Assembly (NCBI GenBank): GCA_029261035.1 | Contig: JAJDCD010000025.1 | Span: 66,926 to 130,925, forward strand | Origin: Candidatus Omnitrophota bacterium | GTDB taxonomy: Bacteria; Omnitrophota; Omnitrophia; Omnitrophales; JACROU01 | Direction: 5' to 3' | DNA length: 64,000 nucleotides | Shown here: positions 4,259 through 63,800 of the stretch, piece after piece | Numbering within the stretch: the stretch's first letter is position 1 | How the letters are laid out: every line of letters begins with the position of its first letter | Made by a program: the position numbers and the translations under genes | The notes under the pieces: model-generated | What the model saw: only the letters and a program-made list of their open reading frames with translations | Told to the model about the DNA's origin: nothing | The model's database searches: none

Positions 4259-4296
4259 CCTCCAAATTCTATTCTTTAATCAAATTACTATTTAAG

Positions 4297-28567: not shown

Positions 28568-31500
28568 TTATGCAGCTGTGAGAAGGGCTTGATACGCTTT
28601 AAAAGCTTGTTGGAGTTTACTGATTTTTTCTCTTAAGGAATTTTTAACAAAAGTAAAAACACCTCTCTTCTTATCTTTCCGAATATTGTCACGCACAGGT
28701 TTCATTAATGGATGAGACATATCCCCTTCGCTCATTCCCAACAAGAAAGCATGCGGCAATGCATAACGATTAAAATCTGCTAACTCAATACCTAAATCAC
28801 TTAACTCATTTGAAGAAGGGGTCTCTAACCTTTGGATCAACATAAGATCAATCGCACTTAATAATTCGGACGAACCTACAACGCTCAATCTACGATGAAC
28901 CATCGCCTGAGTTATATTTACACTCACTTCTTCAAAATACTGTTTTGCCAAATTTAAGATTTGAACAAAATCTTTTCCTGTTAAATAAGATTGAAAACTA
29001 TCGACTTCATCCCCTTTAAGTATAGGAATAACAAGAATTCGATCATTAATTAGCTCCCCATTTTTATCCTTCAAGAATTTTATTTTATTTTCAATCTGTT
29101 TGGCTTCTTTATTGGTTCCATAATAAAAAATTAAAGACACTGTTTTTGGATTATTCGTAAGTAATAGTGACTCCGACTCTACATCAAAGTAATCACTTGT
29201 TTTCATAACAACAGAAAAAGTCTCTGAATTCAAATCATAGGCATTAAACACACGACTTTGAGTTTCCGAAAGCACTCGATCAAAAGAAACAACCCTTGGA
29301 GATTCAGCATCCGCACTTTCAGCCGCAAAAGCTTTTGGATACCAAGAACTCATAACAAGTCTGTAAAGAGAGCTCTTCGCAGAAGAATAAAAGGACAAAG
29401 GTAAAATGCGTCCCGAAAATAACTGTGCCGTTTCTCTAACACGATCCACAACACCCAAACTTGCAGCAGAAACGTCTGCTAACTCAGGGTCATTGGAATA
29501 AATAAACCCTCCTCCAGAAGTACGATTTATAATATTTGCATGAAACACCGCTAAATCATGCTGATCTAACAAAGTATGAACTTGGTTAAAAAAAACAAAA
29601 TCTGATTTCCCAGACTCCAAATCACCTCTTGTTTTATACTTAAATGCCTGAACCCAAGCATTTACCTCTGGGTTATCAAGGTCCACTGTCACAAACTGCC
29701 AAGAGTCACTGACCCCTGGTAAAAAAGAAAATGCTTTTCTGATGTTGTTTCTCATGTCCTCAAAGTCTTTCTCCAAAGGAGTTACCGTTCTAAATCCTTC
29801 ATTAGGAATATATTTTTGAAACTTGTGCTTAAACCCATTCCACTGACCATAAACACCTCCATCTTTGTGTCTTAAGTCTATGAATGGGTAAATAATCTCC
29901 CCTCTTTTAAATGCTTCTAACACACGAGTGTCTCTATCTAAAATATTAAAATCTAAAGGAATCTCTTCTAAAGACACCCCCTCCTTTTGATACGCAGTCA
30001 TCATCAAAATTAAAATACTTAAAGGTTCTTCAAATACACCTGGACCTATTAAATCGATGGTTATTTTTTTATTTTGTTCATCGCTTTCCTTTTTCTTTCT
30101 AATCAACTCTCTTAACTTTAAATAAAAACTTTCATACTGTTTATGAGTCCTAAAAAACAACCCATACCGACCCGTTCCTTCATAATCCAAAGGAAGGGTA
30201 ACATCACTTTCTGGCTGAACCCAATACAAACTAAATTTTCCAAATTCTCTTTTATACTGGTCCATATCCTTAATTCCATTCAAATACATAAAGTACTCTC
30301 TAAAATCATCGTACCCACTAGCACGTGCAAAGCCTGACAAAGCCTTCAAAAAACTCTCTGAAAAGATGCGTCCCATATCTAATTGATGTATAAATGTTGC
30401 TCTAAAAGCTAAACTAGAAAGCATATCCGAAATCAAAACTCCATCCACACTCCCTATTCTTTTCACTAGACTCTTAGACACTTGTATTTCTCCTGTTTTA
30501 AAATCCGTTTGCTGCTGTCCCAGACTAGAAGCTCTCGAACGAGCAGCATCCATCACATCAACAACATCTTTAATTGTTTCTTTTGTATGATATGGAAGCA
30601 TAGACATCTTTACAGAATATGTTGGATCATCCTGAATTTTTAATAAATAATCATGCGGAGTCATTAAAATTAACTCTGAGTAACGAGCCATTGCAATTTT
30701 TCTGCTTTGCTCAGCAAATATTCGGACCATTCTGTCTTCAGTATATTCAGAGACCTGCTGTAAAAAATTAATTTGTTCTTTTAAGTAATCAACAAGCATA
30801 ATTAAATTCCACAAAAAAGAAGGTGTTGTTCCAGACTCACCCCAAAGCTCCCACAAATCACTATAGGGACTATCCAGTATTTCTATAAACTTATTTTTCT
30901 CAAGCAAGTCTCTAAAAGCACGTCTAGATTCAACAGAATTAACCGCTTTAATAATTCCCGCAGATGTAAATCCTGCTTTAAATAGCACTTCTTGTTTCCT
31001 CTCCAAAATTTCTCTTCTATCTTCTTCCAAATCATTATTCAAAATATTACTATTTCTATCGTACGCATCATGAGCTCTTTCCGACAATGTAGCAACAAAA
31101 TCTGTTGGAATATCAACATAAAGCAAACTTGTAACTCTAGGTAACCAACCCATTCTAACCTTTGCTTCAAAGTATTCCTCAGCAAAAAAACTTTTCCACA
31201 AAAATTGATACACCCCTTTTAAGTCGTTTACATTTAAAAGCTCTTGCTCCTTCTCTTTATTCCACCCACTATGATTCAATAATCCTTGAACCAAGCCTTC
31301 TACAAAGAACTCAAATCCATCATATTTCTCAAAATGATGCAAACTATCAACAGCAGAAACCGAAGATAATAAAGCGTCACTCACTTTCAGTTCTTTGCGC
31401 CTAGCACTTGTGAAAGGGTATTCATAAAGCATTCTAGAAGCAAAAAAGTCTGTCAAAACAAATCGTTGTCCTTGATTTATAGTTATTAATTTTTCTGGGT

Positions 31501-34500
31501 TTGTTAAGGGAATACGTCCTTGAACAAATTGATATGCCAATGCCTTTCCATAACCATAAGCAGCTTGTTGCACCCATGACTTCTCATCCTTTTTTTCTAT
31601 TAATTCTCCTTCATGAGTTGCTCGAATGGAACCTGGGCTCAACCTTAAAAGATACCCTTGTTTATTCGTTTTGTGTTCAAATTGAATACTAGCAATTACC
31701 CTAACAAGAGTCTCTTTTTCATACCCTTCTAAAGTAAAAGTCCCATATTGTTGCAAAGCATCAAATTCTCTTTTAGCCTCTCCAGCCGTCAGTCCTCCTC
31801 GAATACCTCTAAAGGAATCTTCGTAATCATAACCGCCTTCTGGAGTCCCAACCCCTTTTAATTCAAGAAAAAACTCTTGGCCATTCAACGAAAAAATCAA
31901 AGGCATTCCATTCTTTAAAACAATTCCTGTCCTCCCACCTGCACGCGTACCAATTTCAGGAGGAGTTACAGACATCAACACACTATAATCTTCCCCAATA
32001 TCTTCAGAGCTCGTAACAAGAACAGCCCCTGATAAAAAGTATTCTTTTAAGTCCTCCGGAACCATTTCCCAATCTACGGATGTTTCCATACTAACTTCAT
32101 CCATCAGAGTAAATGCGAGAGGTATTTCTTCCACAGATCTCAAATCTGTCCATTGAGCCTTAAAAGTCGCTGAGTCAGCATTTACAACATTTCTAAACTC
32201 TCTCCCTTTAGAATACACTGGTTGTATTTTTCCATCTCCATCTCTTGATAACCCAACAAGAAGATCGCCTTCCTGTCTAGCACTTTCAAACCTCTCTCTA
32301 ACCTCAGAATCTTCTACACTTTCAAGCTCGCTCAACTTCTCAGGCTCTGGCCAAAAATCGATTTTCTCACCACTATTTCGCTGCCAAATAACAAGCCCTT
32401 TCTGTAGAAGCTTACTTCCAAAATCAGAAAAAAACCTCAAGCCCCCCTCAAGCTTTTGGTAAGCTTTTGTAGGAGAACCATAAAGCTCTCTCAACATATC
32501 AAGCGTATGAACCCTTCCTTGGAGTTTGGATTCTTTGCTAAAATATTCCGACATAGTTTCGAAGTGAATCTTAGCAAAACTAATGTTAGGCCTATTAAAA
32601 GCTCCTATAAGATCTTCTATATGTCTATACGTATCTTTATGCCATTTCTTAATTCTTTGCTTTAACCTACTACGTAAAGACCAATAATCATTTTGAGGCT
32701 GCACTTCTGAAACAATTAAAACAGGATTATTAGACGCATCCCTCGATACCACGACATGCATCCAACCAATAAGACCTGGTCCCTCTGGAAAATTTTTCAA
32801 ATCCACCTCTCCCAAAACACCTCTAACCTCCTCTAAATCTTTTGTGTATTTAGTACCCTTTGAATCAACCAAAACATACACAACCAACGTTGGCTCATAA
32901 CTTTCATTAAAGAATGGGAGACGATCAATGCTTGCAGACAACTTGTATTTACCTAACTTTGAACTTTTATTAATACTCTCTTTAACTCTCTCTAAAAACC
33001 TCCAGTTCTCCAAGTAAATTGCTAAATTTCTACTTTGATCTGAATTCTCATTATTCAAACCAAGAGAAGATGCATCTACCTTACTCAACACTTTCTCTCG
33101 ACTTGCTACAACAGGAAGGTCGCCATCAGTTATTGAAGCCTGATAACTTTGATAAATCTCTTCAAAATAACTGCTATTAGAAAATAACTCAAAAACATCT
33201 TTCGATAATTTTGGATCAGAAAAAGAAAAATCAAAACCTAGCAAAACAACATTAATTAATTGCTGCACCCTTTCATCAGACAATCCTAAATGAGATAAAT
33301 TATTACTCATAGAGTCCCTTAAATAACCAGCAAACTGATTAGCAACATCAATATAAAATTGAACTTTTCCTTGATAATCAATTAAATAAAACTGTAATTC
33401 TCCCTTATGATCATCAACAACCACCTCCGCATTAGGCCATCCTCCCACCTTTTGATAGAAAGAACCTATAACCTTCCCAAACTGATAAAAGGCATTATCA
33501 AGAAAACCTTCATCCCCTAACCTTTCTCTGTTAACTAAAAGCCATTCATCAAAACTAATTCCAGGAGTATAGTCTTTGATATAAACTCTAATTGGATCTT
33601 CCTTATCAAATCCAATCTGAACAAATTGAAGAGGGCGAGTTAAGTAAGGCGTCTTTTCATAATCTTTCATACTTTCTTGGTATTCCATATACGTATGAGA
33701 ATCCGTAACAGCCCCATCCACACGATACATAAACTTGTCTGTAGCTGCCGTTAGATAAAAAACTTCATCTGGGCTTCTTAGCACAATAAGGTCCACCTTC
33801 TTATTGGACCCTTTAGCCTTACTTAAATCTATGAGCTCAATATCAAATTCGGAAAGTGGCTTGTCTGAACCTCTAAGTTCAAGAACATTTTCAAGTGTTC
33901 TTAATCCAGTTTTCTTATCCTTTACCAATAAAGCAGCCAAGATGCTTAAATGTGTGTCATGAATACCCTCTAACTCCTTATGAGAATCATAAACTTTAGT
34001 TTTAGCCAATATCTTTTCAACCTCTTCATCAAATTCAACCCGTTTAAAACGAAAGAATCTTCTCGTGCTCTCCTTAACTGATTCTTTAAATACAAGAGTC
34101 TCTTTTAATTGTTCAACACCCAATGATTGAGCCTCTGAAATCAAAGAGTCTTCCTGAGTAACCACACCTTCCTTTTCTTCTATAGACATAATCTGACTAA
34201 AGAAGTCTTTAACCACCCTTTCCATTTCGTTCTGTAACGCTAAATTATTTTGACTGTAGTGCTTATGCTGTGTTCCTTTCTGTAAAGTCACTACGTTTGA
34301 CCCTGAATCAGACCGCACTTCTGGATCAATGATAAAACGATGAGATACATTCTTCAAACCAGAGAAGGCCAAAACAAGATCCAGCTCTTTAGCAGAAGGA
34401 TCCACTGAAAAATAAACAGAACCCACCCCACTTGGAAGGCCCTTCACTTTTAAAGAAACATGCCAATCATAACCTCTCTCTAAATCAAAAAGCTTAGGAC

Positions 34501-37500
34501 CTTCATGTTCGATTTCTTCTGGTAGATTTTCTTTTTTGAACAGATCTTTAAACCTTTGAATTAAAGGAGTTGGATCAATAGGATAAATAGATGAGAAAAA
34601 GATAGCATCCGAAGCCTCTTCTGCTTCAGACAAATCTAACTCTAAATTAATTAAAGTAACTTCTTCATCCAAAGCAGGAAAGGAAATACGTCTGCTGTCC
34701 TTATCAAAAGATAATATGGGTTTAAAGGTCTTCAGAGAATCAAAAAGTCTCGCGCTCTGAGAAGGATAAATCGGCTCTTCTGATTCATATAAAACATAAT
34801 ACGTATCATCCACTAATACATAAGGGTCTAAATTTTCGGAGGTCCATATACGAGAAACATTCCCTACGTAGGCTTTACCATCAGACTGTTCTCTTAAAAA
34901 ACGATTTAACTCATATTCAAACAACAGTTCTTCAGTGCTAACATCGTCTCTTTTCATTAAAACATACTGCTTCCCATCAACATCCTCAAAACTCCAATAA
35001 ACATCGCTCAGTTTTTTTACCTGGACAAAACCTTCAATTCCAAATAAAGGCTCCACTCTCTGAATAAACTCCCCTTCAACACCTAAACTTCGGGCGGTGA
35101 AAAATTCTAAAACATCTCTATTGGGGTGCTTATTTTTAAATTCGTTACGACCTCTAAAGTTAACTCCTGTTCCAGTTAAATCAACCACCTCTAACTTTAC
35201 TAAGTTAAGTAAAGCTTCTAAGTTTCGATTCTTCACATCTCTTATTCTAGCCAAATACAGTTCCTTCAAATTAGTTAACTTGCTAATTATCTCTAAATCA
35301 CTTCCTTTTATTTGAGTCCTAGTTAGATTCAGCACTTCTAAATTTCTTAGAGCTTCTAACTGTTTTAACCCAGTTCCAGTTACCCTAGTTCCACTTAGAC
35401 GAAGTTCCTTCAGATTAGTTAATTGGATTATATCCTCAAGAGCACGATCTCCAACTTCAGAGCCTATCAAAGAGAGGGTTTTTAAATTTAGTAAATTCCT
35501 TAAATAGTTTAACCCTTCATCCATTACTTGGGTTCGATCCATTATAAGGCTTTCTAAATTCGTCAACTTTCTCAAATGTACTAACCCTTCACCCGTTACT
35601 TGCGTATCTTTTATATCAAGATTTTTCAAACTTATTAAACCACTCAAATGAGTCAGCTCTTCATTTCCAATGTCAAGTTCACTCAGATCAAGACTTCTCA
35701 AATTAGCATGTTCTTTTAAATGCCCAAGCTCTTCATTTCCAATGTCATAATAAATAAATAAAAGAAATCCTAAATTTTTTATCCCTCTTAATTTACTTAG
35801 TGAGACATTTTCAAATGGTAAGAAACCAAGTTTGATATTTAGCATTAAAGTATCTTCTTCAAAACCTACAGCTTCTCTAAATTCACCTTGTTCATATACA
35901 GAAGGATTATTCAAATCATCTAAACGACCTTTTATATCCTCTCTCACCCGTGCTTTATATTCTTCTATCACCTGTTGACCTTTTTTCGTTTCTCTTATTC
36001 GTCGTATAGCTTGTTTATGCTGCTCATGATAACTATCTGGAAAAAGGATACCTTGAGCCCACCCTCCTTCCAACACTCTCATCACTTCATCTTCTCTTCC
36101 AAGTCCTCCCAGCCTATGAAGAACCATCCCTCTCAACCCAAAATTTTCTGGGTATTCGTGCAACGCTCTCATCATTTCATTTAATCCCATATCAGGGCCT
36201 ATACCAAGGCTTTGCGCTTCTGTACTTTTAGGCTCATCTTCATCATCTGTTTCAACCCAAGAGATATTTCTATAATTTACCTCTACATCTCTTCTTGCAA
36301 GATAAATTCCTCCCGCTCCTGTCCCGACAGCAACAAGCAATAAGAGTGCGGGAATAGCTATAGGCATAGAGAATAAGAAAGAAAACAAACCTAAGGTAAA
36401 CATGTTGATTCCTAAAAAGACAATTCTTTCTCCTCGAGTAGAGCCTGGGGTCAAAGTGCTTTGTGGAAAATCAAAATCTTGAACATCCTCATCTCCTAAA
36501 CTAGCTCCCACAACAGCTCTTCGATCTCTTTCTCTATCATCAAGAATGCTTCTTTCTTCAAAAGACACATCTGACATTTCGCTTCTCAACAAATCCTGAT
36601 AATTACTCACCTGATCGAACAAAAACCAATTACGTTCTGTTGGCTTTAATCTTAATTGTTGTTCAGCTTGAGCAGCTCGATATTCCTCAAGCAATTCATC
36701 GTACTCCAACAACTCACTCTCATCTCCTTCGTAACGAAGTAATGCTGCTTGAAACATTTCGAGCAAAAGTCCTAATTTCAAGTCTAAATGCCTCAATTGC
36801 TCAATTTGATCAAAAACTTCTTTTCCCTTTTGCACAAAAAAGTTTTCTTCAAAAATATATCCACGAAGAACTTCATAAGTTGTTTTTTTCTTTTTTATTT
36901 GAATAGGTTGCCCATCTACATCTCGTGATGCTGTAGCCACTGGCATAAGCATTCTTCTTTCTTCAGACCAAACACCCGAATTGATTTCGCGAGACATTGC
37001 CCAAATAGCTGCAGTCCATAGAAAAGGAATCAAAGTCATCAGGATACTAAAAATAGAAAAAATAGTTGCGTTTTGAATTGCCGCATCCGGGCCAGGGCCA
37101 ACAATAAATGAATGAATACCTATAGGAAGCAAAGAAAATGGCATATATTGAAATAAAAACTTCGTGAAAAAATCTTGAAAAAGTACAATTCGGTTCGCAT
37201 GTCGTTCAGGGTTTTGAACAGCAGACACAAAAGAGTATAATTGAGAAGACATGGCACTATAAGCATCCCCTGCACTTCCTCCATAGGCTCCGTGCCAAGC
37301 AAAGATTTCATCCGCCTCTTTTCTGTAAGATTTTCCTAAAGCACGAATATCTTTTATGACTTGTTTTACAGCTTCATTCCGATCAGAAGAAAGGTTCGGA
37401 TTAGAAAAAATATTCGCCACTTCACTTACTGCCACTGAGCGTTTTTGTATCGACCTCATGGATGGAAGCAGCATAATAAGTGCTGTTGCAAATACATTCC

Positions 37501-40500
37501 TATGGGGAGGCGGAATATTCGTATTAATAGCAGCATCCCTCAGAATAAGCACCGCTTTTTTGCGGTTGCCAATGTAGCCCTCCCGTCTCATCAGTGCAAC
37601 AATAACTTCCGCAGCCTGCTGCACCTGTCCTTCTGTATATAACCGCCATGCATCATCAAATTCTAAAGCAGGTTCTTGAGATCGCAATTCTTCTTTCCCC
37701 AAACTCGCTCCTTCAATTTGACGATCATCTTTTTTCTTCTTTTTCTTAAGCTTTATACTTAGCTTTTCTGGAGTTTCTGATATGTCTGGGGTTGTTGAGA
37801 TGGAAAAACCCAAACTTGAAAATCGAATAGAAAGCTGATCTTTATAACTCTCTATTTGAGCTTGCATCCTTGGGCTCTCAGTTTGAAACTCATCTAGAAA
37901 CTCATGAAATCCCTGTACATCTTGAATAATTCGATTTTTTAAATTAAGATTATCGAAATCATCTGCATATTTAAAAATAAGGGATGCAATTTCATTTAGT
38001 AAAATTAACCTTGAGTCTAAACTGTCCAGATATTCAAATTGACTCAATAAATATTTGCGTGACTGTTTATCGTTAAATAAAGATTTTTCTGATTCCCATA
38101 TCAACCTTCTAACATGGCTTACAATGTCACGATCAGCTAATTTGTTTTGATCAAAGAGCTCCTCACGAAGCTCTCTTCTTTCTCTTATTTTATTGAATAC
38201 TTTTTTAAGAGTCCCAACAATGACAATAAGAGAAACAAAAGATATCAATACATTGATATTAAAATGAGATGTGTAAAATCGATGAGGATTAACGTCGAAA
38301 AAAGAATGGTAAATGCTAACTAAAGGAATAATAGCAATCACCCAAGCAAAACTCGCCACTAATGCAAGACCTTCTATTTCATTAAAATCCCTATTTCTAT
38401 AAACTGTCAAAGGATCTTCTATTAAATGCTCTGTCTCAAAGATGAAATCGGATGTAAGATAATACTTTTGCTTATCATCTTCTTTTCTAATTGAGTAATT
38501 AAAACGATCTGTATTCTCCTGCATCAAATAAGTCCTCAATAAACGCTTCGCATCTAACCCATATTCTGAATTTGTTAAAATTTCAGCATACTGATCAATT
38601 TCTTCTCTCGATTGAGAAATTACGCCTTTCATCCCTTCTGTTGCTAAAATAAGCTCAACATAATAACGAGCTACACTTCTTCTCTTCTTTCTGTCTTTAT
38701 AGTAATACAGATGATGACTGTGCAAATATTCAATTATTTCTCTTTGATAAATATTTTCTGCTGGCAATGGCCTATATTCCAAAAGCAAATCCAAAGCTTC
38801 TCCATGACGTTGTGCTTCTCTTAAAGACCGGTGTCTAACAGCCAATTTATTTGCTTCATCATCTGTTAAATCCACACTAACTCTTTCTTTTGGATCAGAT
38901 CTGTCTGAATAATCAAACGGAAATTCATCTTTGGAAAACTGCTTACCCAAACTCGCACCTTCTAGCTGACGGTCATCTCTTACTTTTCCAGTTTTAGAAT
39001 CTTCTGCAATTGGAGGGGCGGAAATATCTCTTTGAATATCTGGAAATGGAATATCAGGAAATTGTTGAATTAAGAATTCCCGCAGGTTTTTAGATTGGTC
39101 TTTGATGGGCTCCGACACGGAACTTATTTCTGTTAAAAATTGATAAAAGGCTACAATTTCATTATTGAGCCACTCTACCAACAATGGGTTTTCTTTTTCT
39201 TCCGAATATTTAATGACGGCTGCTGCTAATTCATTCAGCAAATAAATTTGAGCATCCGTGGTTCTCAGTTTTTCAAATTGAAGTTTAATGTATTGACGAT
39301 GTTTTTCATCATTAAAGAAATAGCTGTCTGTTGTCCATAACTTCTTATTAACTGCCTTAACAATTTCTTGATCACTCTCACCTAAAGATTCAAAAAGAAT
39401 TTGGTTCTGAAGTTCTAGATAATTAAGATCTTTTCCTCTGTTTTTATCCAACATCATTCTAAAAATAGCAATTAAAGATATGATTGGAATTAAAATGGCA
39501 ACTCCTCCAAGAACATAATCCGATATCTGAGAAGCCTCTAGCAAAACACGAGTGCCTAAGGTAATAAAAATTGCTGGCATTGGAACAAGTATCCAATTTT
39601 GTTTTCTGAAAATTACATTAAAAATTGAAGGGTTTCCAATTTCTTCCAAGTAAGCTTGAGGATCTAAAATCATTCTAGAAGCATGTTCTGCATCTCGTGC
39701 TGTTTTATAATAAGGCCCAGCAGGTCCTGAACCATATTGACCACCACCCCACTCAACATACTCCTTATACTTTTGGGCGCCTTGCTCATTTAGTTCTTTT
39801 GAAAGCTGTTTCAATAGATTTGAAGCTGTTTCCGCTGAAACAGCAGACGAGATTAGATCAACCATTTTGTCTTGAAGGTCCCAATCATCAAATTTAGATT
39901 CTACACCTGGCAACAATTGAATAAAAAACTTAGCTGCTTTTCTTCGAATTTGCACAGGTTGTGTTTGATCAAACAGCAATGGATAAACTAAATCAAAACT
40001 TTGTTTTCGATATTCATCATTATCGGGTAATATTCCTGGAGAACGCGCTAATAGAATATGAATCATCTTTTCATAAAAACCCAATTGAAATAAACCCTTA
40101 GCTTGAGTCAATCGATTTCTAGCATCTTCGATACCTGCTACGGATAACCTTTCATCAAAACCAAACTGCCTTTCAGTAAGTGGCGAGTTTCCCATAATAG
40201 AGCGTCGACGAGACACTTCCTCTCCAGCCGCACCAGGATCAAAATCACGCCATTTAAGCCACATCTGCTCTGTATCTACAACTGTCAAATCCAAAGGCTC
40301 TGGATGCTTTTCATAAATCTGTCTAATTTCTTCTCGAGATACTGGAGTCTGGTAAAAACTAACATGCAATAAATTCTCCATACCTTCAATCAAACTAATG
40401 TCTACCGACTCTAAACCATCTAGATTTAAATCAATCTCTTCTTTCCATTCATTCAGAATAACTCTCTTATCCCACTCCTCTTCTAGTCCATTGACTCTTA

Positions 40501-42574
40501 AAATTTCTCTTACCCTCTCTTTATCTTTTTCATAAGATCCTAATGATTGGGCCAAAACAGCTTCTTCGCTCAACGGTTGGGTTTGGTTTTTGTTTACAAC
40601 AAAGGTAGGGCGAATAATCACAGCTTCTTGGATAGGGATTAGAATAGACTGATTTGTCAGTCCCAAGCTTATCTCTACACCTTTTTTATCAGAAGAATCT
40701 TCCAAACCTGTTTGATAATTCACAGTCAAATCTGCTTGTTTAAAAAGAACATTGGATTCCAAATAGCGACTTATATTTTGAACTAAAACTTCTGTATTGT
40801 TTCTTAAATTTGGATTTAAAGATAATTCGCGCTCAATCAGAATATTTAAAAGATCAATCACAGCATCAACAAGCATTTCCACTTGCCTTTTTTCATCTCC
40901 TCCTAAAAGTTGAATTTGTTTCAGATCCCCTACCATCCCAAGCACTTTTTGAATTTGGGAGGTATCAAAAATAGTTTTACTCATTCCCATAACAGACTGG
41001 TGATACTTCTCGTGACCAAACTCCGTTTGGATTTGAGGCTGAACTCCAACATAAGATATGTTTTTATCCTTAATCAATTCTGCTAATCCTTCGGAATGAA
41101 AACCTCCCGTAATTAAGATGGCTTTTTCTTGTTTCATTTGTTTCATTTGTTTTTGAAGTTGCTCAAATAAAGCTTTATTACGTTCTTCGGCTAATCGGTA
41201 GAACTCGATAGCATTCTTATAGACAGGTTTAAATGTTTTTTGATTTTCTAAAAGAGTTCCCAAATCTCTTTCTTCTTGGTTTGAGAGTTGCAGAAGACGA
41301 TCCGTCAACTTACGCACATCTCCATTCAAACCTTTCCAATCAGAGTATGACAATTCAAAAGCAATCAATTTCTTAAATAAATTCAAATCCTCACTCAGCT
41401 TAATTAAAATCTGTTCATTTTCGTTCTTAGATAAAAATTCATATAAATTTCTACTTAATTGGTTCATTTCATTAAAAAACTCAGGACCTGTAATTTCGCT
41501 CTGAAGAATGAAGTGTTCTGAAAACTTTCTTAAATTTTTATACGCTGAAAGATCTATTTGAGCCTGCAAACTTGCTTCATAAATAAACTGAAAGAATTCT
41601 CGGGGAGCTTTTCCTGTCGTTTCGTAAAGTCGTGTCACCAAAGATTGGTTGATCTGATTTCGTTTTGTAATGGACGTTAGCCCTCGAATCAGATGCTGCT
41701 TATCCCGCTCATCAAAAACTCGTTCTCTCATCAGATGAATTAGTTGTGTTACTTCCTTCTGGAGACCCTCATCATCTAACTCTCGTTCTCTATCTTGAAC
41801 ACGAAGCATTCGACACAGAAAGGGATATTCTTTTTGGTTTAAGGGTGAGGTCAATTCTATATTAAGAAACTCTTCTGCTTTTTTTTCTAAATAAGAGATA
41901 AATTGAATGAGTTCGATTTGTTTATTCTGATATTGCAGAACTTTTTTATCAAATTTTAATAACTCGGGATTGTAAATACGCGATTTTAAAATATTCAGTT
42001 CTCGGTCAAAAGAATCAAAAAAGGGTTTTGCTTCTTCTTTGGTTTGAAGGCCTTTACGGAACAAAGTGTAATCCTCTCGGTAAAGGTCTGTTTTTTCAAC
42101 TCCTTCAAAAAAGATACCTTCATAATCTTTTAGCCCTTCAGATATTTCCAAAGCAAAAAGTTCTCCACCTGTAACCTCCCCCTTCTGAGCTAAGGCGTCT
42201 GCTACCTTCATATTAATATCTGCATAAGGAAAAAAGTGATAACTACGAGGATCTAACGAAGAGGACGCTCCTTCTAAACCAATTAACTGATAATCATGTT
42301 CACGGACTAAGTAATCTAAAATACTTTGGATATTTTTCTGTGCTTCATAGTTCGCATGAGCATCTTGAATATGAACAATCACTTTTTCGGAGTCTGCAGG
42401 AATAACTTCTTTGACTGTACCTAGTTGTTGAGGTAAGGAGAGTTGAAGAGCACTTTGAGACACACTTTTTACGTTTAGCGACAATAGCCCCTCTGGAACA
42501 GACCATGCCACTGTAGTTGTCGTAAAGCAAATAAGCACAAAACTAGCTATAAACCTCAAGTATTTAAAACCCAA
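28568..42574 (-). CDS. Giant secreted and membrane-associated multi-module protein of 4668 aa, function unknown. It has a signal peptide, a conserved N-terminal domain, at least 4 TM segments, an LRR block and nine A-x-S-L-G module boundaries.
   Basis: A single uninterrupted ORF. The TTG start has an AAGGGAG RBS 7 nt upstream. The signal peptide is MGFKYLRFIASFVLICFTTTTVAWS. The LRR block is at DNA ~35155-35800. Confidence 0.85.
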   Translation of the reverse strand: MGFKYLRFIASFVLICFTTTTVAWSVPEGLLSLNVKSVSQSALQLSLPQQLGTVKEVIPADSEKVIVHIQDAHANYEAQKNIQSILDYLVREHDYQLIGLEGASSSLDPRSYHFFPYADINMKVADALAQKGEVTGGELFALEISEGLKDYEGIFFEGVEKTDLYREDYTLFRKGLQTKEEAKPFFDSFDRELNILKSRIYNPELLKFDKKVLQYQNKQIELIQFISYLEKKAEEFLNIELTSPLNQKEYPFLCRMLRVQDRERELDDEGLQKEVTQLIHLMRERVFDERDKQHLIRGLTSITKRNQINQSLVTRLYETTGKAPREFFQFIYEASLQAQIDLSAYKNLRKFSEHFILQSEITGPEFFNEMNQLSRNLYEFLSKNENEQILIKLSEDLNLFKKLIAFELSYSDWKGLNGDVRKLTDRLLQLSNQEERDLGTLLENQKTFKPVYKNAIEFYRLAEERNKALFEQLQKQMKQMKQEKAILITGGFHSEGLAELIKDKNISYVGVQPQIQTEFGHEKYHQSVMGMSKTIFDTSQIQKVLGMVGDLKQIQLLGGDEKRQVEMLVDAVIDLLNILIERELSLNPNLRNNTEVLVQNISRYLESNVLFKQADLTVNYQTGLEDSSDKKGVEISLGLTNQSILIPIQEAVIIRPTFVVNKNQTQPLSEEAVLAQSLGSYEKDKERVREILRVNGLEEEWDKRVILNEWKEEIDLNLDGLESVDISLIEGMENLLHVSFYQTPVSREEIRQIYEKHPEPLDLTVVDTEQMWLKWRDFDPGAAGEEVSRRRSIMGNSPLTERQFGFDERLSVAGIEDARNRLTQAKGLFQLGFYEKMIHILLARSPGILPDNDEYRKQSFDLVYPLLFDQTQPVQIRRKAAKFFIQLLPGVESKFDDWDLQDKMVDLISSAVSAETASNLLKQLSKELNEQGAQKYKEYVEWGGGQYGSGPAGPYYKTARDAEHASRMILDPQAYLEEIGNPSIFNVIFRKQNWILVPMPAIFITLGTRVLLEASQISDYVLGGVAILIPIISLIAIFRMMLDKNRGKDLNYLELQNQILFESLGESDQEIVKAVNKKLWTTDSYFFNDEKHRQYIKLQFEKLRTTDAQIYLLNELAAAVIKYSEEKENPLLVEWLNNEIVAFYQFLTEISSVSEPIKDQSKNLREFLIQQFPDIPFPDIQRDISAPPIAEDSKTGKVRDDRQLEGASLGKQFSKDEFPFDYSDRSDPKERVSVDLTDDEANKLAVRHRSLREAQRHGEALDLLLEYRPLPAENIYQREIIEYLHSHHLYYYKDRKKRRSVARYYVELILATEGMKGVISQSREEIDQYAEILTNSEYGLDAKRLLRTYLMQENTDRFNYSIRKEDDKQKYYLTSDFIFETEHLIEDPLTVYRNRDFNEIEGLALVASFAWVIAIIPLVSIYHSFFDVNPHRFYTSHFNINVLISFVSLIVIVGTLKKVFNKIRERRELREELFDQNKLADRDIVSHVRRLIWESEKSLFNDKQSRKYLLSQFEYLDSLDSRLILLNEIASLIFKYADDFDNLNLKNRIIQDVQGFHEFLDEFQTESPRMQAQIESYKDQLSIRFSSLGFSISTTPDISETPEKLSIKLKKKKKKDDRQIEGASLGKEELRSQEPALEFDDAWRLYTEGQVQQAAEVIVALMRREGYIGNRKKAVLILRDAAINTNIPPPHRNVFATALIMLLPSMRSIQKRSVAVSEVANIFSNPNLSSDRNEAVKQVIKDIRALGKSYRKEADEIFAWHGAYGGSAGDAYSAMSSQLYSFVSAVQNPERHANRIVLFQDFFTKFLFQYMPFSLLPIGIHSFIVGPGPDAAIQNATIFSIFSILMTLIPFLWTAAIWAMSREINSGVWSEERRMLMPVATASRDVDGQPIQIKKKKTTYEVLRGYIFEENFFVQKGKEVFDQIEQLRHLDLKLGLLLEMFQAALLRYEGDESELLEYDELLEEYRAAQAEQQLRLKPTERNWFLFDQVSNYQDLLRSEMSDVSFEERSILDDRERDRRAVVGASLGDEDVQDFDFPQSTLTPGSTRGERIVFLGINMFTLGLFSFLFSMPIAIPALLLLVAVGTGAGGIYLARRDVEVNYRNISWVETDDEDEPKSTEAQSLGIGPDMGLNEMMRALHEYPENFGLRGMVLHRLGGLGREDEVMRVLEGGWAQGILFPDSYHEQHKQAIRRIRETKKGQQVIEEYKARVREDIKGRLDDLNNPSVYEQGEFREAVGFEEDTLMLNIKLGFLPFENVSLSKLRGIKNLGFLLFIYYDIGNEELGHLKEHANLRSLDLSELDIGNEELTHLSGLISLKNLDIKDTQVTGEGLVHLRKLTNLESLIMDRTQVMDEGLNYLRNLLNLKTLSLIGSEVGDRALEDIIQLTNLKELRLSGTRVTGTGLKQLEALRNLEVLNLTRTQIKGSDLEIISKLTNLKELYLARIRDVKNRNLEALLNLVKLEVVDLTGTGVNFRGRNEFKNKHPNRDVLEFFTARSLGVEGEFIQRVEPLFGIEGFVQVKKLSDVYWSFEDVDGKQYVLMKRDDVSTEELLFEYELNRFLREQSDGKAYVGNVSRIWTSENLDPYVLVDDTYYVLYESEEPIYPSQSARLFDSLKTFKPILSFDKDSRRISFPALDEEVTLINLELDLSEAEEASDAIFFSSIYPIDPTPLIQRFKDLFKKENLPEEIEHEGPKLFDLERGYDWHVSLKVKGLPSGVGSVYFSVDPSAKELDLVLAFSGLKNVSHRFIIDPEVRSDSGSNVVTLQKGTQHKHYSQNNLALQNEMERVVKDFFSQIMSIEEKEGVVTQEDSLISEAQSLGVEQLKETLVFKESVKESTRRFFRFKRVEFDEEVEKILAKTKVYDSHKELEGIHDTHLSILAALLVKDKKTGLRTLENVLELRGSDKPLSEFDIELIDLSKAKGSNKKVDLIVLRSPDEVFYLTAATDKFMYRVDGAVTDSHTYMEYQESMKDYEKTPYLTRPLQFVQIGFDKEDPIRVYIKDYTPGISFDEWLLVNRERLGDEGFLDNAFYQFGKVIGSFYQKVGGWPNAEVVVDDHKGELQFYLIDYQGKVQFYIDVANQFAGYLRDSMSNNLSHLGLSDERVQQLINVVLLGFDFSFSDPKLSKDVFELFSNSSYFEEIYQSYQASITDGDLPVVASREKVLSKVDASSLGLNNENSDQSRNLAIYLENWRFLERVKESINKSSKLGKYKLSASIDRLPFFNESYEPTLVVYVLVDSKGTKYTKDLEEVRGVLGEVDLKNFPEGPGLIGWMHVVVSRDASNNPVLIVSEVQPQNDYWSLRSRLKQRIKKWHKDTYRHIEDLIGAFNRPNISFAKIHFETMSEYFSKESKLQGRVHTLDMLRELYGSPTKAYQKLEGGLRFFSDFGSKLLQKGLVIWQRNSGEKIDFWPEPEKLSELESVEDSEVRERFESARQEGDLLVGLSRDGDGKIQPVYSKGREFRNVVNADSATFKAQWTDLRSVEEIPLAFTLMDEVSMETSVDWEMVPEDLKEYFLSGAVLVTSSEDIGEDYSVLMSVTPPEIGTRAGGRTGIVLKNGMPLIFSLNGQEFFLELKGVGTPEGGYDYEDSFRGIRGGLTAGEAKREFDALQQYGTFTLEGYEKETLVRVIASIQFEHKTNKQGYLLRLSPGSIRATHEGELIEKKDEKSWVQQAAYGYGKALAYQFVQGRIPLTNPEKLITINQGQRFVLTDFFASRMLYEYPFTSARRKELKVSDALLSSVSAVDSLHHFEKYDGFEFFVEGLVQGLLNHSGWNKEKEQELLNVNDLKGVYQFLWKSFFAEEYFEAKVRMGWLPRVTSLLYVDIPTDFVATLSERAHDAYDRNSNILNNDLEEDRREILERKQEVLFKAGFTSAGIIKAVNSVESRRAFRDLLEKNKFIEILDSPYSDLWELWGESGTTPSFLWNLIMLVDYLKEQINFLQQVSEYTEDRMVRIFAEQSRKIAMARYSELILMTPHDYLLKIQDDPTYSVKMSMLPYHTKETIKDVVDVMDAARSRASSLGQQQTDFKTGEIQVSKSLVKRIGSVDGVLISDMLSSLAFRATFIHQLDMGRIFSESFLKALSGFARASGYDDFREYFMYLNGIKDMDQYKREFGKFSLYWVQPESDVTLPLDYEGTGRYGLFFRTHKQYESFYLKLRELIRKKKESDEQNKKITIDLIGPGVFEEPLSILILMMTAYQKEGVSLEEIPLDFNILDRDTRVLEAFKRGEIIYPFIDLRHKDGGVYGQWNGFKHKFQKYIPNEGFRTVTPLEKDFEDMRNNIRKAFSFLPGVSDSWQFVTVDLDNPEVNAWVQAFKYKTRGDLESGKSDFVFFNQVHTLLDQHDLAVFHANIINRTSGGGFIYSNDPELADVSAASLGVVDRVRETAQLFSGRILPLSFYSSAKSSLYRLVMSSWYPKAFAAESADAESPRVVSFDRVLSETQSRVFNAYDLNSETFSVVMKTSDYFDVESESLLLTNNPKTVSLIFYYGTNKEAKQIENKIKFLKDKNGELINDRILVIPILKGDEVDSFQSYLTGKDFVQILNLAKQYFEEVSVNITQAMVHRRLSVVGSSELLSAIDLMLIQRLETPSSNELSDLGIELADFNRYALPHAFLLGMSEGDMSHPLMKPVRDNIRKDKKRGVFTFVKNSLREKISKLQQAFKAYQALLTAA

Positions 42575-57842: not shown

Positions 57843-57894
57843 AAAGGGGACAGGCAACTTTTCTATTTGTTAAAAAAAGTAGCCTGTCCCCTTT
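57843..57894 (-). terminator. 13-bp-stem hairpin immediately after the stop codon of giant gene 2
   Basis: The stem is aaaggggacaggc / gcctgtccccttt. The 27-nt loop contains a T-run. The hairpin overlaps the TAA at 57893-95. Confidence 0.35.
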
Positions 57895-60800
57895 ACGCTG
57901 CCGCCGCTACAAGCTCTTCAGCTTGGAACTGGGCATACACCTTATTTAATAGGGTTGTAATGAAACTGGCCCCAATAACCCATTCTTGACCATCAGGCTT
58001 GAAGCCGGCTTTGAGAAAAAGCTCCTCTCGAAGATCAGGGTAATTGGCTAATTGACGTAAGAGGGCTACGACCTGGACAGGATCTACTCCATTACCTGAC
58101 AACACTTCTAAGTCAAGACGTACTCGATCTCCGTTACTGAAAATCATCTGGAATACATTTTCGTTTGGACTCACCCAAATACCTGGCACCTCATATTTTC
58201 TTAATGAAGCTCTAAAAATTTCTGGATTCAAAAGCTCTCGACGCACATCTTTAAGTTTAAATTGTTTTCCAGGTAACTTATATAGAGCTTGAAGAAACTC
58301 CGGCTTACCTCTCCCCTCCCACGTTACCATCAACAAATCTTTTTTCTGCATCATGCTATTAAACTGAGATGCACTTCTTTCAGGGTCGTCCACATGACTT
58401 AAAATGATGTCATCCACGATCAGTGGAATGGGTTTATTGACTTCAGCTTCTAGCAACCCCGAAACTTCCAAAGATAAATATTGAGTCATCACCTCTAAGG
58501 ATTGATTAAAATCTATAATACGAGGATCTATGATTCGATCTACTGTATCTTCCAAAACTCCCATACGAATAAGTAAACTTTTAATAACCTCTAATGGAGA
58601 ATTTGGCATAAATAAGATTTGCCCTGCAAAGGCTTGAGCAACTTGAATCATTCCTTCAACCGAAACATCTCGCGCTTTAATTTGAGTTAAAGCAGGTTCT
58701 GCTCCCAAACTCTGCGCTTCAGCTCTGAGCCATTCTTCTTCCGGACCACTCAGTTCGTTCGCCTCATCTCCAGACTCTCGTTTCCATAATTCTGATAAAG
58801 TTTTTAACTGGTTTATAACTAAATCAAATCCTATACCTTCCTCTTTTTCTAGAATCATCAAAACCTCTTCCCCTCTTTTTGCTTTGATTAAATTTGCTCC
58901 ATATTTACCCTCAATAAACCATCTTAAAAAATTATTTTGAAAATCAACTTTTTTACTAATATCCTTCTCAGCTAACAACGTATCAAAAATAACAGAAAAA
59001 GCTTTTTCAATTCTTTCCAACTGTTTTAGTTTTTTATTTTCATCTAATACTGAAGGCATAGCTAAGAAAAGAAAAACCACTAAGGGTAAATAGCGCTTTT
59101 CTTCTTTGGCCAACCTTATAATTTGATCTCTCAAAAATGAGTCTGTTGCATATCCAAATTGAACCATCTCAGATAGATGGGAAAACACCTTAGGCAAAGG
59201 ATCATCCACATAAGGAACATAAAAACGATATATCAGAATTATAAACTCAATATTAAATATAGGGTGACGAACACCCATTTGTTCTTCTAATAAGATTTGA
59301 TTCCATATATGAATAGCTCCGGATAAACGTCTAGCTCTAACATTGGTCAACAACTCCTTTAAACCATCAAGTAATTCGTCCAAAGAAATGGTCACACGTC
59401 GTTTTGAAATGCTTGTAACCATTTCTTGTATTGCTTTGATAGAGTTTCTTGACAAATCTTTATCATGTTCAGCTATAAACTTCTGCCAAATTCTAAAAGT
59501 GTTAATATCATGAATGAATTTATACTCAAATAATACTTCTAAAAGCCTTAGTATTTCTTCCCCTCTAAAAAAGGTCTCAAATCCAAAAATTTTGGACTCA
59601 GCATCTGGTTTAAAAAATGCTCGTTGAAATTTTTCATCCAGTTTTGTTGACGGGCCTATTATCTGAGTCAAAGAAGAATTATCATACTTTTGTCTTATAT
59701 TCGAGTACGCCCCTAAACTCTGCGCATCCACTCTTAACCACTCAGGTTCCTCTCCTTCTGACTCAATACTTTCGAACGGCCCTTCTTTTCCCCAAACATC
59801 TGCTATTTGCCTTAGCTGTTCTAAAACTTTTTCCTCTCCAACAGCATCTTTTCTTCTTATAATCTCTAAAACCTCCTCCGTTCTAAACATTCCGTTAGAA
59901 CTTACTGTTAATCGTTCCCATACATCTAATCCTAATCTAGGCTCCTCCATACTCTCCATAAAAATCAAATATTCCATTAGAAAATTCGGATCTAATACTC
60001 GGCCACTCCTTTCCACCTGTTCAAGAAAACTACCAACAACTTCAAAAGAAGAAGAAATTGTAAAAATGTCATTCATTTCTACCACCTTACTGAGCCTTTC
60101 CCAGAGATCAGAATGGAGAACATCCTTATCTATCAATTCTTTTTTTATCAAAAAACCTAGGGTTCTTAACAGAGTAAAAGTACTTGTAAAAGAATCCTTG
60201 TTCAAATGAGCAAACCTAAATAATAAATTAATATCCAAAACTTGTTCATCAGCTCTCCCTGACTTCACAGCCACCCCCAACTCTACAAGCTGCTCAAAAC
60301 TGCCCATCTCCCGCAAATCATAATATTGAGCCATTATAATGAACAGTTCCTCATTCCATAATTTTTCTGGAATCCTCTCCTCTGCTATGCCGGTTTCCAT
60401 CCGTAACAAATCCTCTATAAGAGGTTGTATTTCCTTTGAATTCACCTGAACAAGCGCTTCCAAAAAATCTAAATTAAATCTTTCTATCCTTCGTCTTTTC
60501 TCTAGCAGGGAGTCTCCTAACTGTTCGATAGCTTGAAAAGACGTGATTCTATTATCCCTACTCCCTTTACTAACTATTTCAAAAATTCTTTCTATTTTTT
60601 CTAATTCACTTACATCTTTAAAAATTTCTGTTAAAACGATAAATGCCTCCATAGCCGCTTCTTCATCTTCAAGCACTTCAACTAACCCAGAAAAGTCCTG
60701 CTCAAACGCTTCCCACTCCATGTCCAGCCCCTCTAAAAGACCAGCCTCTTCATATCTATCACGAGCTCCTAAACTTTTTGCAGAAATGATGACGGGTGCC

Positions 60801-63800
60801 ACATCAATCAATCTCTCAACTATCCCATCTACTTCTTCCTGAGGGGCTGTAATCATTCTTAACGCTTCAACGGCTCTCGTCTTTAGGTCTGAGCGTATTT
60901 CATTTAAATTTCCGGTTTGACGATTTCTTTGGGTCCATCCAACAACATCGTTTAAGTTGGCTTCTAGATCTTTTTTTGTTTCATCACTCATTTCGTAGAA
61001 TACGTCTGGTGCATCAATCACAAAGCTGCGTCCAAACTCAGCGAAGGCGGATGTGTTTGTGAAGTGAGGAAAAGGAGTTCCTTGCACACGATCTGCAATG
61101 AACACCGTCATTTTAGAGGATTCAATGACAATTCCCGTCCCTACACCATCATCAATCGTAGAAATTTTAAAAGGTCCAACCTTTTTCCACTCTTTTCGCT
61201 TAGCTCTTTCGATTGGAAAATCGGTGCGCACCACATGGGAATGAATTTGGGCTTGGCTCGCTCCTCCCCGTGGAGGGTCTGCAATGTCTTGGTAGTGCCA
61301 GCCATTCATTGCCATTTTAAAACCATTTTGACCAAACTCTTCTTTGGGAATCATCAAGACATTAAAAGAATTTCCTTTTTCTGAAATCAGCTGTGTCGTC
61401 TTCGCAATAAGTGCGGCTAACTGCTGGTCTTCAACAGAGTCAGTTTGTATGACATTACTATTGGTATTCAATTCGTTTACGGCTGTAATAGCGTCCCGTA
61501 TATGTGTTTGTTGATTCCACTCTTTTTGATGAACAACATCGTCTGCTCTAGAAAAAGTCATATGGTACGGTTGGTCTTCGTCATACAAACCTTCTCTTAG
61601 TGGCCAAATGGCATAAGGATTAAACGCAAACCACCATCGATTCCCACTAGGACCCTCCCATCGAAGTCTAAATTGTTTTTCATTTGCTTTCATTCGTTCG
61701 GGGTAAAGCACTTTCATGACAGGTGTGTCTTCGTTGATTTTTTCTTTTTTAACTCCGGTTCGATTGGGTCTTTTTGCTCGTGCCACATTCTGCACAAAAA
61801 TAAACTCTGGATCCTCCTCTAACCCTACAGGCAATCCCCCTAGATAGGTTTTAGGAGATTCTTCTTCTGGAAAATAAAGTGCGTATTCCACTGTGTTTCC
61901 ATCTTCCATAATTTTTAAAAAATCTCTTCTTGATTTATCCATTTGTAAATTTAAAAAAGCTCTAACAGCATCCGACAAATACTGGAAATAATTTGCCCTT
62001 AATTCCGGCTCTCCTGGAACAAAAGGACTAACCGACTGCACTCTTAATGAAGCGTTCTGTCTAAGCGCTTCAAACGCTAGTACAATGTTTTTAATAATAA
62101 AATTGCTATTACTAACAGGAGCTCCCAGCGAAGCCGCTGAACTCAAATAATCATTACTAAAATCAATAGGAGCTGGTGTTGCAAGCGTTAACGCCACAAC
62201 AGCTTCTAACACTCTTTGTTTTCTATCTTTAGAATACCTCGAATGCATCCCACTTAAATCCAAAGATAAAGGCGCTCCTATGTTCGATTCGGAGATTTTA
62301 TTTAAAGTAGGAATAATTGATTTCAAATAAAGGTTACGACTATAATCAAAAGCTTCTATTTGTGGAGAGAGCGAGACAACGGAATACCCTTTCTTGCCAA
62401 GCAAGTCTTGAACCCCTTCACTATGAAAACCTCCTGTTATCAAAATTCCCCTATCCTCTTTTCTTGTTTTCATATGTTTAAGCATTCGTTGAACAAACTC
62501 ATTCTCTCTTTTCTCTGCCAAAACATAGAACTGGTGTGCTTTTTTGAAGAGAAGCATCATGGATTCCGTAGATTTAAAAAACGTCTTTTCTTGCAATAAT
62601 TTTTGAACATCTAATTGTAGCTGGAGTGGTACAGGACGAAGGCTTTCTTTGAAGAGCGTCGTATATTCTTCTCTATTTAATTCCAAAATCAAAAATCGTT
62701 TTAGAGAAAGGTAGAGTTGGTTCAGTTGCATGATATTCTTTTCTTCTGCTGTGCTGGTCAATTGAGCCGCTAGCATGTTTTCTAATAACCTAAGCTCTTC
62801 AAACAAACCTTGTGAATTAATTTCGGATTCGAGAATCTGATACTGAACCCATCGTGAAAAAGCCTCTAATTTAGGTGTTTCAACCCCTTTTTCCATAAGC
62901 TGCTCTACAACTTCTTCAAATAAAAACCGTGGGAACTTGATCTCACTCTCTACCCCTTCTCTCATACGATTAAGCCAAGTCTCAAATTGGGAATACAGTG
63001 ACGCACTTAAGTGAGGTTGAATACTTTCTAAAAACTGATTTGATTCTTTAAATGCTAAACTGAAATTAACTTTAGATTCGATAGACTTCATCGAAAACAA
63101 TCGAACAAGGTTAGGGTAATCTAATTGGTGGACGGGATCATCAAAGTTAATTTGAAGTGCTTTTTGACTGTACTTCTTTAAAGTTTCCAAATAAGAATAA
63201 AGGTAATCTGAATCTTTATGATACTTACGCCATTCCTTTACATAAAGTTTAAGTTCATTAGAAAAATAACGATTTTCTAATTGCATTAGTTTTATTTCCA
63301 CATCCTTCATCCATTCGGATGACATGGATTGGTTTTCTATCACATATTGAAACAACTGAAGGTCCTCATTGTAAATTTGAGAATCTTCAACTCCAAAAGC
63401 TTCAATGGGCTGAGCATTTTCTTGAGAAAGCAAAAACATCTCTGCGCCTGTAACAACTCCTTCCTGCATGAGTTGATCCGCCACTTCTAAATTAAATTTT
63501 TTATTCGGAGAAAAATGAAACAAGGAGGGATCTAACTTCTCTGTCCCTGCCTCTAAATACAACGTGGAGACTTCTTGAGACTCCGTAAGGACTTGCACCA
63601 TTTTTTCTATTTGTTTTTGCGCTTGATAATTACTGTGGACATCTTGGATATGAAAAACAATACCTTTGGGTTTGTCTGGCACATTAGAATAAGTCACCCT
63701 TCCTAACTCGGGTGGCATCACATCAGAAAAAAGAGAGGTTGTGGAAGAAGTTTGACGTAGAACTTCTCTAGGTTGCGGTGCTTGCGCCCACAAACAGCTG

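Follow-up and report, generated by a model that had tools for sequence, protein, structure and literature searches.

We report a five-residue motif, [AG]xSLG, that divides a very large predicted protein of an uncultivated Candidatus Omnitrophota bacterium into a string of units, and we propose that it marks sites of proteolytic processing. The DNA analysed, here called the window, is a stretch of 64,000 nucleotides (nt) from assembly GCA_029261035.1 (contig JAJDCD010000025.1, positions 66,926-130,925, forward strand). The protein, giant 1, is identical to entry P0042 of a representative protein library and is accompanied in the window by a smaller relative, giant 2 (Table 1). With moderate confidence, and on the evidence of sequence, we read giant 1 as a polyprotein built of cassettes, with the motif acting as the delimiter at which it may be cut.

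The motif is present ten times in giant 1, against an expectation of 0.26 and a maximum of three in 5,000 shuffles, and four times in giant 2, where 0.07 would be expected. The other 32 open reading frames (ORFs) of at least 150 amino acids (aa) in the window, 12,879 aa in all, contain only two matches. An origin by chance, by amino acid composition or as a by-product of internal duplication could be considered because three of the ten sites lie in paralogous modules and might be inherited copies. However, the other seven flank units that have no detectable similarity to one another, and the motif recurs in giant 2 and in three further proteins, L004, L008b and P0043, although the cargo shared with giant 1 amounts to a single cassette of P0043. 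Together with the shuffles, these observations reduce the probability of such an origin to almost nothing. The Ser, Leu and Gly codons differ from site to site, and it is therefore the peptide, and not the DNA, that is under selection; a DNA-level origin, such as a recombination site or a recoding signal, was ruled out by codons that differ at every position. We also rejected several known peptide signals that the motif brings to mind, namely a phosphopantetheine attachment site (DSL), a lipobox, a sortase or exosortase signal and an encapsulin targeting peptide, since none of the sites lies at a C-terminus and neither a carrier domain, a Cys nor a following transmembrane (TM) helix is present.

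The motif stands at every unit boundary of giants 1 and 2, beside domains as unrelated as a leucine-rich-repeat (LRR) domain and the conserved domains at the two ends of the chain (N-domain and C-domain). In giant 1, giant 2 and P0043 the outermost sites lie after the N-domain and directly before the C-domain; in L004, L008b and L001 the first site likewise comes after the N-domain. All three membrane modules of giant 1 end in the motif, as do units 3 and 4 of giant 2, which are paralogous (z = 11.8) and both close with EWLR..AQSLG; giant 2 has no internal TM helices. The LRR domain of giant 1 is contained within a single unit and was recognised by matches to Pfam LRR_14, LRR_4 and LRR_8 (aa 2292-2472) and to internalins in the PDB (aa 2252-2483). 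Compared with random positions, the 25 residues on each flank of the 14 sites have a more hydrophilic composition and a larger share of disorder-prone residues (p 0.005-0.03).

Three of the units of giant 1 are copies of one module. A preliminary description of this DNA had reported a tandem duplication, each copy with two TM helices, a helical segment of about 120 aa and the string DDRQ[LI]EGASLGK. The duplication is genuine and directly visible in the sequence. The strings quoted for the first copy (NWILVPMPAIF from aa 993, DNA 39598; DDRQLEGASLGK at aa 1200-1211, DNA 38977-38942) and for the second (LALVASFAWVIA from aa 1403, DNA 38368; DDRQIEGASLGK at aa 1616-1627, DNA 37729-37694) are present, and the two segments (aa 993-1211 and 1403-1627) align collinearly over 191 aa, with 31% identity, 55% positives and 5 gaps (BLASTP, E 1e-23). 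Each has two hydrophobic stretches of 19-21 residues (aa 994-1012 and 1020-1040 in module A; aa 1403-1423 and 1438-1457 in module B) with mean Kyte-Doolittle values of 1.75-2.56, sufficient to span a bilayer, and the two further hydrophobic stretches that had been pointed out downstream were found in module C and in unit 5. When giant 1 was split at the recurrent motif and every pair of units was scored against shuffled controls, the repeat proved to be triple, the third copy, module C, lying beyond the two first noticed (Smith-Waterman z = 39 for A against B, 13.8 for C against A and 6.4 for C against B). The three-way alignment is collinear through an upstream helical domain, the hydrophobic pair, the downstream helical segment and the final GASLG. 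The repeat unit is the whole segment from motif to motif (531, 416 and 401 aa), larger than the 220 or so aa first quoted. The closing string had been taken as part of the module; the helical segment does end in ..GASLG, but the [AG]xSLG core is a general delimiter that also stands beside unrelated domains. An AlphaFold model of module B, for which the alignment comprised its two paralogues only, was all-helical, including the segment of about 110 aa after the TM pair (predicted local distance difference test score, pLDDT, 65-85 there), but overall confidence was low (pLDDT 56) and fell below 50 over the last 35 residues (382-416), which hold the motif. Foldseek matches of this model were generic helical repeats and were disregarded.

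A word-indexed search of 5.8 billion proteins found no homologue of the module region (aa 680-2124), and a module profile matched none of the 79 related family ORFs described below. HMMER with the three-module profile against 1.84 billion representatives returned giant 1 itself, one true relative, P0043, and one plant NBS-LRR-like match that we rejected as spurious. P0043 is a protein of 4,625 aa from a housekeeping neighbourhood on a 2.17-Mb metagenomic contig; it shares with giant 1 the signal peptide, the N-domain and a C-terminus of the family type (..MILSAA), and has four [AG]xSLG sites. Its one copy of the module (aa 3852-4387) is 28% identical to aa 665-1210 of giant 1 over an alignment of 581 aa (E 2e-42), extends from motif to motif and has a hydrophobic hairpin of its own. 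The module is the last unit before the C-domain in P0043 and the first unit after the N-domain in giant 1; hence, the motif-to-motif unit behaves as a movable cassette. By itself the duplicated module would be of modest interest, as an orphan helical-hairpin cassette with one known relative.

The preliminary description had further proposed that the protein threads the membrane several times, with its large modules on alternating sides. Nine hydrophobic helices of TM grade, the N-terminal one included, are indeed present in giant 1, a number that would suit a multi-pass protein. However, the membrane stretches are close pairs of helices, 2-16 residues apart, with loops of about 7 residues in module A, 16 in module B, 3-10 in module C and 2-3 in unit 5, and each pair returns the chain to the side from which it came. 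No single unpaired TM helix lies between any two of the large domains. Lys and Arg are enriched on the outer flanks and depleted in the loops of the four hairpins of giant 1 and of the hairpin in P0043; by the positive-inside rule, both flanking domains would therefore lie on one side, the cytoplasmic one. We regard an alternating arrangement as very improbable.

Giants 1 and 2 belong to an unannotated family that is restricted to Omnitrophota and combines a predicted signal peptide, an N-domain of about 530 aa, variable cargo and a C-domain ending in ..[AS]A. The N-domains of the two giants share about 520 aa at 28% identity (E 1e-53). A database search with the N-domain gave 41 homologues, labelled 'hypothetical' and without a Pfam domain, and those with a named source are all from Candidatus Omnitrophota; equivalent signal-peptide ends (..GWA, ..AHA, ..AWS) are found in the homologues of giant 1. 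Scanning one genome per GTDB species yielded 442 tblastn-confirmed stretches, the best 79 of which were taken as family loci (L001-L079); the sequence taken was limited to 10 kb, so many of the ORF lengths are minimum values. Within the 79, every record title that names an organism refers to an Omnitrophota metagenome-assembled genome, often with several loci per genome, and the N-domain ORFs range from about 500 to more than 3,900 aa. Complete members end in ..[x][AS]A at the carboxyl terminus (..TAKSA, ..TSKAA, ..IAIRA), and giant 1 (..LLTAA, 28571-28600) and giant 2 (..VAAAA, 57896-57925) end in the same way, as seen in an alignment with 38 complete relatives. This ending resembles Ala-Ala C-terminal degrons or signals for tail-specific proteases. 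BLASTP of giants 1 and 2 against the 79 family ORFs gave matches in the N-domain only, with no similarity among members between the conserved ends. Entries P0016-P0039 form a subfamily of about 480-490 aa in which the N-domain makes up the whole protein; they carry no cargo, share a conserved ..PKVTTKTDDNLYRQTLKREW end and could be free-standing forms of the putative hydrolase.

Most members of the family carry a different motif. The tripeptide with the greatest excess in them is RSE, as part of R[SA]ExR, with 18 copies against 1.9 expected in L042, 16 against 1.4 in L073 and up to 18 copies per 3,900 aa or so. The density of R[SA]ExR is 1.84 per 1,000 aa in family ORFs and 0.14 in the other ORFs of these loci, and the few non-family ORFs with at least three copies are themselves giants that end in ..SAA, ..RAA or ..RSA. 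The type of motif is uniform among the paralogues of a genome, being RSExR in most genomes and RAExR in DAOPYQ01. Family members from JACROU01 and JAKQXH01, with L003 and L004 among them, whose N-domains are some of the closest to those of the window, have [AG]xSLG and zero R[SA]ExR; L004 has eight [AG]xSLG sites. Variants of the delimiter were also seen, RAEKR in L027 and L072 and R[AS]EAR in L036. At L008 (JACROU010000002), two family giants lie head-to-tail on one strand from about position 11678, the first of 1,808 aa and the second (L008b) of 2,106 aa; the latter has ten SLG sites, eight of which fit [AG]xSLG, and ends in ..KKARSA. In L024, RSEVR motifs at 1734 and 1879 stand on either side of a receiver domain of response-regulator type (aa 1752-1873). 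Other relatives contain an S8 peptidase (L073, aa 1348-1525), PGM/PMM domain III (L004, aa 1361-1499) and a phosphorylase. The receiver, S8 and PGM/PMM domains are of a cytoplasmic type. A literature search for RSExR pentapeptides returned only noise.

We favour processing at the delimiter because the motif is short, conserved, selected as a peptide and placed in flexible linkers between unrelated domains, and because it is uniform within each genome, switches between clades and bounds both the end domains and the mobile cassettes. Each of the three tandem cassettes begins with a soluble helical domain, continues with a hydrophobic helical hairpin and a helical segment of about 110 aa, and closes with a hydrophilic tail ending in [AG]xSLG. 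The delimiter would be a clade-specific cleavage site, [AG]xSLG in the source organism and its closest relatives and R[SA]ExR in most others, and the three modules would be released from one precursor as hairpin-anchored membrane proteins of about 400-530 aa. The N-domain itself might do the cutting in cis, as a TIKI/Ere-like hydrolase, or a protease encoded elsewhere in the genome, with a specificity that has shifted between clades, might act in trans; we regard these as equally possible. The N-domain is the only universally conserved candidate enzyme in the family, and the S8 domain is another candidate in some members.

A serious rival is that the protein is never cut and works as a membrane-tethered multi-domain scaffold, in which [AG]xSLG and R[SA]ExR would be linkers or hinges, or short motifs for docking an adaptor, a chaperone, a secretion-system component or some other common partner. 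Conserved end domains around variable cargo would also suit a single working chain, a protease domain was not confidently detected in giant 1 or 2, and motifs in hydrophilic linkers modelled at low confidence fit a docking function equally well. However, a hinge needs no strictly invariant core of 3-5 residues between unrelated folds, nor would it be expected to switch wholesale between clades and yet stay uniform among the paralogues of one genome. Moreover, the motif parts the end domains from the cargo and bounds shuffled cassettes, a pattern typical of polyprotein sites. We therefore consider the uncleaved scaffold possible but somewhat unlikely.

It is also conceivable that the motif serves for post-translational modification or sorting, with the central Ser modified or the motif repeated as an export signal for successive segments. 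The central residue is Ser at all 14 sites in the window, and at the 293 R[SA]ExR sites it is Ser in 77% and Ala in 22%; both motif types also prefer a small residue two positions upstream, which recalls the -3/-1 rule of signal peptidase. An obligatory Ser hydroxyl is hard to reconcile with the replacement of Ser by Ala in whole genomes (RAEKR, DAOPYQ01), and no modifying enzyme adjoins either giant, the neighbours being housekeeping genes. A modification or sorting site is, in our judgement, decidedly unlikely.

One candidate for the enzyme is the N-domain. Its AlphaFold model, built from 43 sequences, was of good confidence (pLDDT 87.6; predicted template modelling score 0.80) and shows six strands flanked by helices, together with a helical insert of about 300 aa. 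The family signature is HIQDAH..LEGA..GVE..GGFH, in which H73, Q79, E101, G158 and E160 are invariant and G490-G491-F492-H493 are at least 90% conserved; H73, E101, E160 and H493 each directly follow a predicted strand, at its C-terminal end. In its predicted beta-sheet core flanked by helices and its His, Glu, Glu and His at predicted strand ends, the modelled N-domain may resemble the TIKI/TraB/PrgY/ChaN/erythromycin-esterase superfamily, and GGFH fits the GxxH signature of this superfamily. It differs from that superfamily in being dominated by the helical insert and in giving no significant comparison. Foldseek against the PDB ranked Bcr135 (3b55, 2rad) at E 0.37-1.1 and EreC (6xcs, 6xcq) at E 1.1-1.4, with template modelling scores up to 0.26. 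Pfam ChaN/Tiki (PF04187) gave E 0.006, below the cut-off, in 1 of 43 members, and hhalign against the TraB-family protein YbaP of Escherichia coli gave E 0.62, in a sole alignment that pairs R465..GGFH493 with R..GALH of YbaP. Nothing was found by Foldseek at E of 0.001 or lower in the PDB or a viral library, and a profile of the N-domain against PDB sequences yielded nothing relevant; the top Foldseek hits, to alpha-pore-forming toxins and SMC-like coiled coils, are due to the long helical insert and were rejected as homology. Active hydrolases of the TIKI superfamily are recognised by two His and two Glu on a parallel sheet; they include the erythromycin esterases, Bcr135 and RRSP, an effector of MARTX toxins that is an endopeptidase of this superfamily (PMC6254334). 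We take the assignment of the N-domain to the TIKI/erythromycin-esterase superfamily as a weak hint, a lead and not a result. An extension that we put forward as unlikely is that the N-domain is itself an endopeptidase of TIKI type and that each giant is cleaved by it, in cis, at the delimiter of its clade, which would release the shuffled cargo with its hairpin modules.

Several observations weigh against the polyprotein reading. We infer cleavage from the position of the motif, its conservation and its clade-wise switching. The two motif types share little beyond the small residue two positions before the central Ser or Ala, and we infer that they are functionally equivalent. P0043 has only four sites in its 4,625 aa, with one stretch of 2,770 aa that has none, so that not all domains are marked by the motif. 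Confidence in the AlphaFold model of the module is low (pLDDT 56). The TIKI assignment has no statistical support, as the Foldseek, Pfam, PDB profile and hhalign comparisons were all non-significant, and searches of Pfam and NCBIfam revealed no other protease domain in giant 1 or 2. Finally, the predicted topology is in conflict: the signal peptide would put the N-domain outside and the charges around the hairpins would put the flanking domains inside, and an exported N-domain cannot easily be combined with cytoplasmic modules because no TM helix lies between them. Similarly implausible localisation calls are reported for published Omnitrophota giants (bioRxiv 10.1101/2023.11.21.568195).

Giant proteins of Omnitrophota are already known as a class; the delimiter and the family architecture merit further study. 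The giants described in two papers (10.1101/2023.11.21.568195; 10.64898/2026.06.07.730766), Archaeovorins and related multi-enzyme giants, are like those of the present family in their phylum, very long single ORFs, housekeeping chromosomal context and signal peptide with scattered TM helices; they are mostly unannotatable as well, and the receiver, PGM/PMM, phosphorylase and S8 peptidase domains found in our relatives are also listed there. A keyword search of the two papers found no mention of an N-domain with two His and two Glu, of a C-domain ending in ..[AS]A, or of [AG]xSLG or R[SA]ExR. West-Roberts et al. described Archaeovorin-type giants of more than 30,000 aa with many TM regions, a divergent SecA_DEAD domain and an N-terminal C39 or S8 peptidase; they suspected post-translational cleavage but lacked cleavage points, which blocked further analysis (2023, bioRxiv 10.1101/2023.11.21.568195). 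Unlike the Archaeovorins, giant 1 has 4,668 aa and no SecA_DEAD, C39 or S8 domain by Pfam, with S8 occurring in the relative L073, in a comparison for which many family ORFs were cut at about 3,900 aa by the 10-kb limit.

Two better-known systems offer a parallel. MARTX toxins are also conserved at both ends, and the unrelated modules strung between these vary and are shuffled between strains. Their modules are freed by cleavage at short inter-domain sites, as is proposed here for the present family. The MARTX cysteine protease domain cuts after Leu and before a small residue, which would fit a cut between Leu and Gly of SLG. However, there is no sequence similarity, Pfam and NCBIfam detect neither a C80 cysteine protease nor RTX or glycine-rich repeats in giants 1 and 2, the family has a Sec signal peptide where MARTX has a C-terminal type I signal, and most of the family has R[SA]ExR and not a Leu site. 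Viral polyproteins of the picornavirus and flavivirus type likewise encode unrelated domains in one ORF and separate them, within flexible linkers, by a short conserved junction motif that varies between lineages and is uniform within a genome. They differ in that the giants are cellular chromosomal genes with no recognisable chymotrypsin-like or papain-like protease, and processing of the giants is proposed here.

The layout of the two giants is given in Table 1. Units 7-10 of giant 1 have no Pfam, NCBIfam or PDB sequence match, and the 5.8-billion-protein search gave no homologue of aa 2499-4374. Unit 10 contains ITIDLIGPGVFEEPLSILI, which by eye recalls the S-adenosylmethionine-binding motif of CheR-type methyltransferases; this resemblance is unsupported by Pfam, NCBIfam or the PDB.

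Table 1. Giants 1 and 2 and their parts, with positions in the 64,000-nt window
Feature	Residues (aa)	Position in window	Strand	Remarks
Giant 1 ORF	1-4668	28568..42574	-	14,007 nt, 4,668 aa; TTG start; 10 [AG]xSLG motifs giving 11 units
Predicted Sec-type signal peptide	1-25	42500..42574	-	MGFKYLRFIASFVLICFTTTTVAWS, followed by VPE; recognised in the sequence by its K/R n-region, hydrophobic core and A-W-S c-region
Conserved N-domain	~26-560	40895..42499	-	alpha/beta core with H73, E101, E160, H493 (GGFH) and ~300-aa helical insert
Giant 1 delimiter 1	675-679	40538..40552	-	AQSLG
Giant 1 delimiters 2-10		38945-38959, 37697-37711, 36494-36508, 36203-36217, 35081-35095, 34118-34132, 33059-33073, 30518-30532, 29453-29467	-	[AG]xSLG
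Module A (unit 2)	680-1210	38945..40537	-	in order, a helical domain, the TM hairpin, a helical segment and a tail that closes with EGASLG
Module A hydrophobic hairpin	994-1040	39455..39595	-	two helices, 7-aa loop; Kyte-Doolittle 1.75 and 2.56
Module B (unit 3)	1211-1626	37697..38944	-	architecture as module A; tail ending EGASLG
Module B hydrophobic hairpin	1403-1457	38204..38368	-	16-aa loop; Kyte-Doolittle 2.52 and 2.22
Module C (unit 4)	1627-2027	36494..37696	-	third, more diverged copy; tail ending VVGASLG
Module C hydrophobic hairpin	~1812-1861	36992..37141	-	helix 1 weak (Kyte-Doolittle 0.8-1.4), helix 2 clear (2.0)
Unit 5	2028-2124	36203..36493	-	97 aa, essentially one hydrophobic hairpin (aa 2049-2093, DNA 36296-36430); ends EAQSLG
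Unit 6	2125-2498	35081..36202	-	LRR domain, internalin-like; ends TARSLG
Units 7-10	2499-2819, 2820-3172, 3173-4019, 4020-4374	29453..35080 (unit 10: 29453-30517)	-	orphan cargo, each unit closing with [AG]xSLG
Conserved C-domain	4375-4668	28571..29452	-	ends ..YQALLTAA; alignable with the C-terminal ends of 38 complete relatives
Giant 2		57893..63853	-	1,986 aa; family member with N-domain and C-domain ending ..LVAAAA; four A[AKQ]SLG delimiters
Giant 2 delimiters		62123-62137, 60767-60781, 59711-59725, 58703-58717	-

Both giants lie in a chromosomal context that includes lipopolysaccharide-core and lipid A genes, shikimate pathway genes, ilv and leu genes, UvrB and ValRS, among others, and no mobile-element signature was found adjoining either of them. 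All 34 ORFs of at least 150 aa in the window are on the minus strand, the GC skew is strongly negative throughout (-0.09 to -0.38) at a GC content of 34-41%, and many ORFs start with TTG or GTG; scans of the 64 kb for tRNAs and with Rfam gave no match. A lipopolysaccharide inner-core and lipid A cluster (810-11970) contains four GT9 heptosyltransferase-like domains, one of them within a GT4-GT9 fusion, as well as GT4 transferases, LpxK, KdtA and a lipid A acyltransferase fused to an ELM1-like domain; this cluster points to a diderm envelope. Also encoded are a recombinase of XerC/D type (11996-12901) and a prepilin peptidase (18836-19651).

In summary, Omnitrophota carry the longest predicted proteins known, for which the literature leaves open whether each works as one chain or as many cut products. 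A delimiter that is over-represented, selected as a peptide and specific to clades makes this question of cleavage concretely testable. It also defines a previously unannotated family, recognisable by its N- and C-domains, in many Omnitrophota genomes and often in several copies, and it offers a rational way of splitting giants for structure prediction. If the giants of this family are polyproteins cut at the delimiter by their own N-domain, the delimiter would provide the cleavage map that has been missing for them.

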